Shown here piece after piece: positions 5 through 435 of a DNA stretch of 18,811 nt; the stretch's first letter is position 1, and every line of letters begins with the position of its first letter. A program made the position numbers and the translations under genes. A model generated the notes under the pieces. The model worked only from the letters and a program-made list of their open reading frames with translations, did no database searches and was not told where the DNA came from. Source of the DNA: Chlamydiota bacterium (GTDB taxonomy: Bacteria > Chlamydiota > Chlamydiia > Chlamydiales > SM23-39); assembly GCA_048498835.1 (NCBI GenBank), contig JBEHXF010000040.1, positions 1-18,811 on the forward strand, in the 5' to 3' direction.

Positions 5-435
5 TCCGCACGAAGCGTGCGGGCAGGATCGCCGCAAAAGCGGCGACAGGATAGCGGAGGGAAGCCCTCCGCACCTCCCCCAAAAGAGGAGCAGTTCCTT
101 TTTTGCTGCGCAAAAGCTCTCGGCAAAATCTGTTTCCTCCAAGCCATTCAAAAAATTCAAGATTCTCGCTGTGGCTTGAGGAAACAAATTTCGCCTGCGC
201 CTTGCCCTTCGGTCAAGTCGGAACTGCCCCCGCTTGAGCGTCAGCTCAAATCGCGAGGGAAATTTTTTTATCAAGCGCTACAGAAGACTCCCATTATTTT
301 ATCTCGCTTGGATAAAAAAATTTGCGTCGTGATGAGTTTTTGCGCAGCAAAAAGAAGGGGGCTCTCTTTGGGGTGCGGGGCTTCCCCGCATCCTGTCGCC
401 GCAAAAGCGGCGATCTTGCCCGGCGTTTCTCCGGA
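5..435. repeat. Large composite inverted-repeat element: two diverged multi-hairpin units arranged in inverted orientation (REP/REPIN- or MITE-like, or structured ncRNA)
   Basis: 20-119 is an imperfect reverse complement of 334-422. TCGCCGCAAAAGCGGCGA occurs at 29-46 and 396-413. Hairpins at 6-22, 54-72, 101-115, 122-195, 201-217, 234-249, 260-323, 337-353 and 374-390. May extend left of the window. Confidence 0.85.

Follow-up and report, generated by a model that had tools for sequence, protein, structure and literature searches.

REPIN and BIME repeats, the closest described systems to the element analysed here, are dispersed, intergenic doublets of inverted hairpin repeats, and the same repeats flank the gene of a low-copy enzyme, the RAYT; heterodimers, structured spacers and mosaics occur among them (PMC3116915, PMC3733652, both as far as their accessible text goes). 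Bacillus bcr1 is also a dispersed repeat, has a cruciform-like fold kept by compensatory changes, and is transcribed and flanked by 5-bp direct repeats (accessible text of PMC3184786). Mini-hairpins that are exceptionally stable as DNA, and far less so as RNA, are found at single-stranded DNA (ssDNA) phage origins and ssi origins, and ssi signals such as the G4 origin and RSF1010 ssiA carry one-strand hairpin clusters with GCG-N1-2-AGC or CCGAAGG caps (PMC13037366, in the part available). The function of the GxxExxY family (PDDEXK_3; TIGR04256, PF13366) is listed as unknown, with multiple transfers (PMC3424549, in the part available). GxxExxY genes are widespread with no function assigned to them, and many short palindromic repeats of bacteria have no known mobiliser.

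The element described here is non-autonomous and REP-like; its polar cloverleaf core is unusual, and its probable partner is a nuclease. It shares with REPIN/BIME-RAYT systems the dispersed, intergenic doublets of inverted hairpin repeats and the recurrence of these repeats around a low-copy enzyme gene. Unlike REPIN/RAYT systems as the accessible sources portray them, the linked gene encodes a PD-(D/E)XK nuclease and not an HUH Y1 transposase, the arm hairpins are without the GTAG/CGTC tag, the arms are arrays of spaced 8-9-mers, and the unit of about 220 nt contains a four-way cloverleaf. As in bcr1, a cruciform-like fold is kept by compensatory changes in a dispersed repeat; the element differs from it in its DNA-type loops and back-to-back doubling. 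It resembles ssi signals in its motifs; unlike them, it lies in a chromosome, has many copies and comes as pairs that cover both strands. What appears to be new is the combination of arms studded with hairpins and a cloverleaf core that is polar and, in most doublets, heterodimeric. We found this combination only in one bacterial family, and the openly readable literature searched held no description of the element or of a link between GxxExxY genes and repeats.

The window (the whole stretch of DNA analysed, 18,811 nt) is an entire contig, C40, of the 88-contig, 1.97-Mb genome of a Chlamydiota bacterium (G000; other genomes, contigs and loci are numbered likewise). An initial annotation, made from the letters alone, described at its left end a ~430-nt element built from two inverted, diverged copies of a six-hairpin unit. 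All 12 stems that it listed are present where it placed them, and the inverted symmetry is clear: the reverse-complemented right half matches the left half in 156 of 237 columns, with a score of 183 against 46 ± 10 (maximum 76) for 300 shuffles. The folding z of the region is −13.2 as RNA and −13.6 as DNA, and none of 100 shuffles folded equally well. Perfect outer pairs number 7, 7, 8, 6 and 13 in stems H1, H2, H3, H4 and P2, and 7, 7, 7 and 6 in the right-half stems H4', H3', H2' and S'; stems P, S and H1' are imperfect.

The proposed unit held up in part. Its hairpins exist, but an 8-bp stem encloses H4, P and the small hairpin S, making a four-way cloverleaf (Table 1), and the outer hairpins behave as exchangeable modules, found elsewhere in the genome in many further arrangements. 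The two cloverleaf types agree in 91 of 145 columns; type 1 folds better on the minus strand, with GAA and GCA triloops, and type 2 on the plus strand. The extent given for the element likewise describes this composite copy, but the copy is cut at position 1 and its modules continue leftward. Contig C37 matches positions 1-113 with one mismatch and contig C73 matches 1-41 exactly, so the left neighbour is ambiguous and further modules lie to the left of position 1. Measured from position 434, the stop codon of the ychJ-like gene is 20 nt away, as first annotated, and the window is indeed free of transposases by our scan (no transposase-family Pfam match among 21 ORFs). An ORF spanning the element (17-634) had no Pfam match and was taken as spurious, and no promoter-like or terminator-like site was found in 1-520. 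Beyond ychJ, an ORF of 531 aa (828-2423, minus strand), with a protein kinase domain at its C terminus, overlaps the start region of that gene.

Table 1 Features of the composite element and its immediate context in the window.
Feature	Position	Strand	Remarks
Composite foldback element, whole	1..440	.	left side cut by contig end
Left outer arm: AGGAT-type spaced repeat scaffold with H1 (6-22) and H2 (29-46)	1..52	+	30 scaffold matches in genome
H3a hairpin module: 8-bp stem, AAG loop, C-rich tail; variant of H3b	54..80	+	33 copies
Cloverleaf type 1: 8-bp closing stem around S (201-217), long P stem (122-195) and H4 (101-115)	91..227	-	
Cloverleaf type 2: S (234-249), P (260-323), H4 (337-353); type 1 topology	224..364	+	
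H3b hairpin module, hairpin 374-390	367..390	-	50 copies
Right outer arm: AGGAT-type scaffold in inverted orientation, bearing H2' (396-413) and a degenerate H1' (420-434)	390..440	-	
ychJ-like gene, 3' end abutting element (context only)	455..856	-	PF17775, E 1.4e-22

Eleven modules cut from the window and scanned over the genome fell into 60 clusters (37 copies of H1, 33 of H2, 83 of H3, 15 of H4, 8 of P and 11 of S); a shuffled genome yielded only one module match. Module order and orientation vary widely among clusters, the window cluster has the most modules, and the junction of type 1 with type 2 recurs on contigs C75 and C52. The BLASTN copy-number check that the annotation had proposed gave 47 loci in the source genome. 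Among clusters with H1, H2 or core modules and a gene on either side, 10 of 18 lie between convergent genes, as compared with 273 of 1641 adjacent ORF pairs (simple ORF caller). Element ends are ragged and A-rich. In the search for empty sites and duplications, also proposed at the outset, the element proved absent downstream of the ychJ orthologue in all five congeners. Because the neighbours differ in these congeners, which have no synteny at the locus, there is no clean empty site at ychJ, and neither a target duplication nor an empty allele could be established. One congener (G004:C57; L059) has a different small foldback, of the AACGAT class, directly after its ychJ stop. Intergenic clusters across the source genome also mix CGGGCA hexamer arrays, AACGATAT arrays and CGCAGAG arrays, and the repeat classes together occupy about 20 kb in 147 clusters.

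A blastn search with the core in 103 genomes of the family returned only this genome and one 30-nt match, a negative that proved misleading because a covariance model found diverged copies. The first such model, built from four type-1 copies, recovers type 2 at E 1.6e-7 to 5.5e-4 (the window's own type 2 at 1.6e-7). A second model gave matches in 6 of the 103 genomes, five of them true (this genome, G045, G046, G102 and G105) and spanning three genera; none of the five congeners matched. The match in G095 is a simple CACAGAG foldback and was dropped. The covariance check suggested in the annotation thus recovers the doublet, with compensatory changes, in four other genomes of two further genera. 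These doublets sit at unrelated loci (the flanks in G102 and G105 are unrelated), and complete ones lie inside contigs of the other genera. Model R2 had no match outside this genome among 150 genomes of the order and 150 of the phylum, with 24 candidates scored in each set and one genome unscored; exact-pattern scans for the core found nothing in metagenome contigs, nor did the P-stem pattern in viral contigs.

That structure is kept while sequence changes, as first proposed, is borne out by the P stem. In a plain MAFFT alignment of 17 units, both partners differ in 8 of 12 P-stem pairs, yet 94.6% of cells are paired; none of 500 shuffles reached this level, and slid controls reached at most 63%. 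A model-fitted alignment, which leans towards the model, has 35 of 43 pairs covarying. Doublets mostly join two unlike types, as do all six two-sided ones of G046 and those of G045, G102 and this genome, with G105, where two alike types are paired, as the exception. The two types may each be homologous across genera, as the sequence tree weakly suggests (the node holding type 2 of this genome has a support of 0.48); what remains across the genera is a motif-level likeness.

The cloverleaves are polar. In all 26 units the outward-reading strand, as seen from the centre, gives the more stable fold, and this includes all 8 full copies of this genome, which were scored before any model existed; each DNA strand therefore presents one good cloverleaf. 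Among 130 hairpin loops, 43 are closed by G..A on the favoured strand (24 GNA, 12 GNYA, 2 GNRA and 5 longer; in-register UUCG 0), against 6 on the other. The strand-specific cluster of mini-hairpins known from ssi/sso signals is found here as well: in 25 units, GCG-N1-2-AGC motifs number 21 on the favoured strand versus 0 on the other, and C-GAA-G type motifs 23 versus 0, although these counts and the polarity are not independent, because the units share ancestry and those from other genomes were selected with a model of the favoured strand. Confinement of DNA-type GNA/GNNA mini-hairpins to the outward strand favours ssDNA over RNA. Together with the multiple intergenic copies, the bias to convergent genes and the covarying inverted doublet, it agrees with the original reading as a REPIN/MITE-like non-autonomous element acting as ssDNA. 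Rfam 15 has no match in the window at the gathering score (best E for four cloverleaf units 0.24, at 10 of 80 bits), which answers the proposed Rfam check.

CACAGAG-like repeats occur near GxxExxY genes, an association that served as our starting lead and was then tested here. This genome has three GxxExxY genes, and all three lie between inverted arms of family modules. Arms of the cassette on contig C2 share the AGGAT-type scaffold of H1/H2, with 2 of the 30 scaffold matches at the gene and 28 gene-less; the gene on C60 has the 26-nt core of H3b on both sides, and H3b borders a GxxExxY gene in G003 as well. Such inverted flanks are confined to 4 of 1766 ORFs, namely the three GxxExxY genes and a spurious ORF in another palindrome family. 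Inverted flanks scored at least 40 at 21 of 28 near-full-length GxxExxY loci in this genome and its relatives (3 short fragments left out). In metagenomes, they reached this score at 39 of 70 GxxExxY loci (10 of 80 having been dropped for short flanks) versus 285 of 4830 cross-pairs, and flanks in direct orientation did so at 9 of 70. Where CACAGAG-type repeats abound, 14 of 18 genomes have GxxExxY, versus 4 of 23 others, tallies that kinship inflates.

The enclosing arms are inverted arrays of spaced 8-9-mer repeats, whose units in this bacterial family have expanded with hairpins, and gene-less arms occupy dozens of intergenic sites. Arm class follows protein clade, in what amounts to a single split: the seven proteins with RGAT arms (AGGAT- or ACGAT-type) fall in a single clade (support 1.0), separate from the CACAGAG-type. 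The window element matches GxxExxY loci in that its arms match the gene arms of the same genome; unlike them, the window copy is gene-less, and two outward-reading cloverleaves, their shape kept while their sequence changes, occupy the place of the gene. Every doublet with readable flanks sits inside GxxExxY-type arms, and in G046 one cloverleaf core is wrapped in AGGAT-type arms, in CGCAAAG-type arms, or once in a mixture. No gene was found between two cloverleaves at 24 loci (23 GxxExxY, 1 Y1 transposase) or at 57 more, in assemblies that break at repeats. The sole convincing cloverleaf match among the 24 is a whole doublet directly after a GxxExxY stop codon in G046; the 57 further loci had none. 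True cassette arms at G046:C110 (L310) and G030:C1 (L027) carry an H4-like hairpin of a T-run, GC and an A-run, a possible source of one cloverleaf part. A scan of genome contigs with the H2 scaffold gave 98 stretches, of which 80 were examined; some are true arms, one stretch adjoins a GxxExxY gene, and most, which seem to be random matches to GC-rich coding sequence, were set aside.

The GxxExxY protein was modelled with a pLDDT of 91.7 and a PD-(D/E)XK fold with conserved D81, E91 and K93. Its best VIA-align match is a Cas4 protein (Z 9.1, rmsd 3.2, 98 aligned), Hjc scores 7.6, and Foldseek returned no match at E ≤ 0.001. Many PD-(D/E)XK proteins are nearly tied in VIA-align, so no specific activity can be read from this comparison. 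The nuclease stands alone, at 130 aa and with no ligase or strand-transfer domain. The gene at G000:C60:8896-9243 has an internal stop. Internal stops are likewise present in armed GxxExxY genes at G003:C34, G007:C84 and G105:C75, which suggests that such genes decay frequently. Some repeat-rich genomes are without GxxExxY (G001, with 223 pattern matches, G004 and G008; 93-97% complete), and G102 has the doublet with GxxExxY as short fragments only (88% complete).

The initial annotation had looked to a linked HUH/RAYT (Y1) transposase, an expectation that failed: PF01797 has no match in this genome (97% complete), G046, G105 or G056, all of them incomplete assemblies, and the arms match those of GxxExxY nuclease genes instead. 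G045 has one PF01797 match, which has neither inverted flanks nor a cloverleaf. A four-helix-bundle partner (PF05635) is also missing from this genome, and the GTAG/CGTC tag is absent from the 7-nt flanks of six arm hairpins. The element appears to be neither an IS5 MITE nor a known RNA, and it falls outside the REPINs by its want of RAYT and tag.

Our preferred reading, held with somewhat better than even confidence, is that the element is a gene-less, non-autonomous, REPIN/BIME-style selfish DNA of the GxxExxY cassette system. Its most serious competitor, which we consider rather unlikely, is a BIME-like pile-up in which the cloverleaf pair represents the ends of a different element, missing or unassembled (HUH/IS200-IS91-like, or like a plasmid or phage origin); the pair would have landed repeatedly in GxxExxY-type foldbacks and would be moved by another enzyme. 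The ends of HUH elements typically form strand-polar folds as ssDNA and come in two types. Most doublets here pair two types (those of G105 being alike), the arms can be swapped around the core, and an IS5-like end interrupts one copy in G046 (C106). CCGAAGG-type mini-hairpins, moreover, occur in ssi and G4 origins (PMC13037366, in the part available). Against such a pile-up stand the PF01797 results in the four genomes and G045, the placement of all doublets with readable flanks inside GxxExxY-type arms, and the viral contigs, where the P-stem pattern has no match. That an IS5-family DDE transposase moves the element, as a MITE or as IS-carried cargo, is more doubtful still. IS5-family MITEs resemble it in being non-coding with inverted ends, and some MITEs of this genome combine IS5-like ends with CACAGAG foldbacks related to the arms, so other enzymes can move such arms. 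One of these is probably the repeat at 11.5-11.7 kb of the window, where a CACAGAG-type foldback (11500-11700) lies between ends like IS5-like MITE termini, between marC-type and pseudouridine synthase genes; cassettes also ride in an IS5-family element in G034. Nonetheless, an IS5-like end motif is present in 1 of the 30 intergenic regions holding the family and missing at the other 29, tblastn found no match to an IS5 fragment and no IS5 transposase in the genome, and the ends of the element are ragged and A-rich.

A structured RNA, which the annotation had offered as its alternative, is disfavoured, and we rate as improbable, though a shade above the IS5 reading, that the element is a host-selected terminator, processing or stabilising element at the 3' ends of neighbouring mRNAs or a large ncRNA. 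Its enrichment at gene 3' ends would fit, as would the G-U pairs, which are commoner on the favoured strand (75 of 1267 versus 29 of 1218), and the example of bcr1, a transcribed cruciform repeat with compensatory changes (PMC3184786, accessible text). The loops argue the other way, being of GNA and GNYA type with almost no GNRA and no UUCG, as do the Rfam result, the lack of terminator-like or promoter-like sites, and the patchy, non-orthologous distribution, with nothing beside ychJ in the congeners and unrelated flanks in G102 and G105. The annotation's other fallback, a local inverted duplication, or a chimera of assembly at the contig end with no biological unit behind it, is the least probable of all. 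The element does begin its contig and has two alternative left joins, but paired cloverleaves are found again in other genera, within contigs, and the junction of the two types is repeated on C75 and C52; as an account of the architecture, duplication or chimera is largely refuted. The evidence points to a DNA repeat and not an RNA gene, and to a kind of selfish DNA apparently undescribed.

For the GxxExxY-linked selfish DNA that we prefer, we infer both the mobility of the element and the action of the nuclease on its arms. The element would be recognised as folded ssDNA, one cloverleaf per strand, for instance at a replication fork; the PD-(D/E)XK nuclease, acting in trans, would bind the arm repeats and nick at or near a hairpin or branched DNA; and host repair or template switching could then copy the unit into gene-end sites and shuffle modules between copies. 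Recognition probably lies in the arms, and the cloverleaf might be a cleavage junction, a priming signal or a passenger. More tentatively, a stand-alone PD-(D/E)XK nuclease may mobilise repeat-armed units through folded ssDNA with no transposase at all, the cloverleaves being functional left and right ends. Such paired ends might form four-way junctions that the nuclease resolves, or their mini-hairpins might prime copying of a released strand. If true, the system would resemble REPINs but use new chemistry, and the GxxExxY family would gain its first function. One genome supplies both the arms with their cognate enzymes and a well-defined ssDNA fold that covaries, so spread by the nuclease can be tested directly in vitro. 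Covarying ssDNA cloverleaves can also be mistaken for new ncRNAs.

Among the relatives, G034 has 67 GxxExxY matches. Self-mobility was considered as their explanation and rejected, as the 20 copies examined look like hitch-hikers in an IS5-family element. At G034:C44:27218-28622 (L188) and about 60 further matches, this element has as its cargo a GxxExxY cassette, or a derivative with half the gene; the cargo is convergent with the IS5-family transposase and has been amplified by that element. The interrupted cloverleaf of G046 (C106:3860-4065) has its IS5-like end inside the loop of the S hairpin, which suggests that cloverleaf elements may be insertion targets. A second family of nested palindromes, rich in GCGAAGC-type hairpins and without a blastn match to the window element, extends up to about 630 nt at G000:C7:53099-53730 and has further sites at C2:74098, C2:41896, C11:13.0-13.3 kb, C12:45235, C27:27338 and C55:11363.
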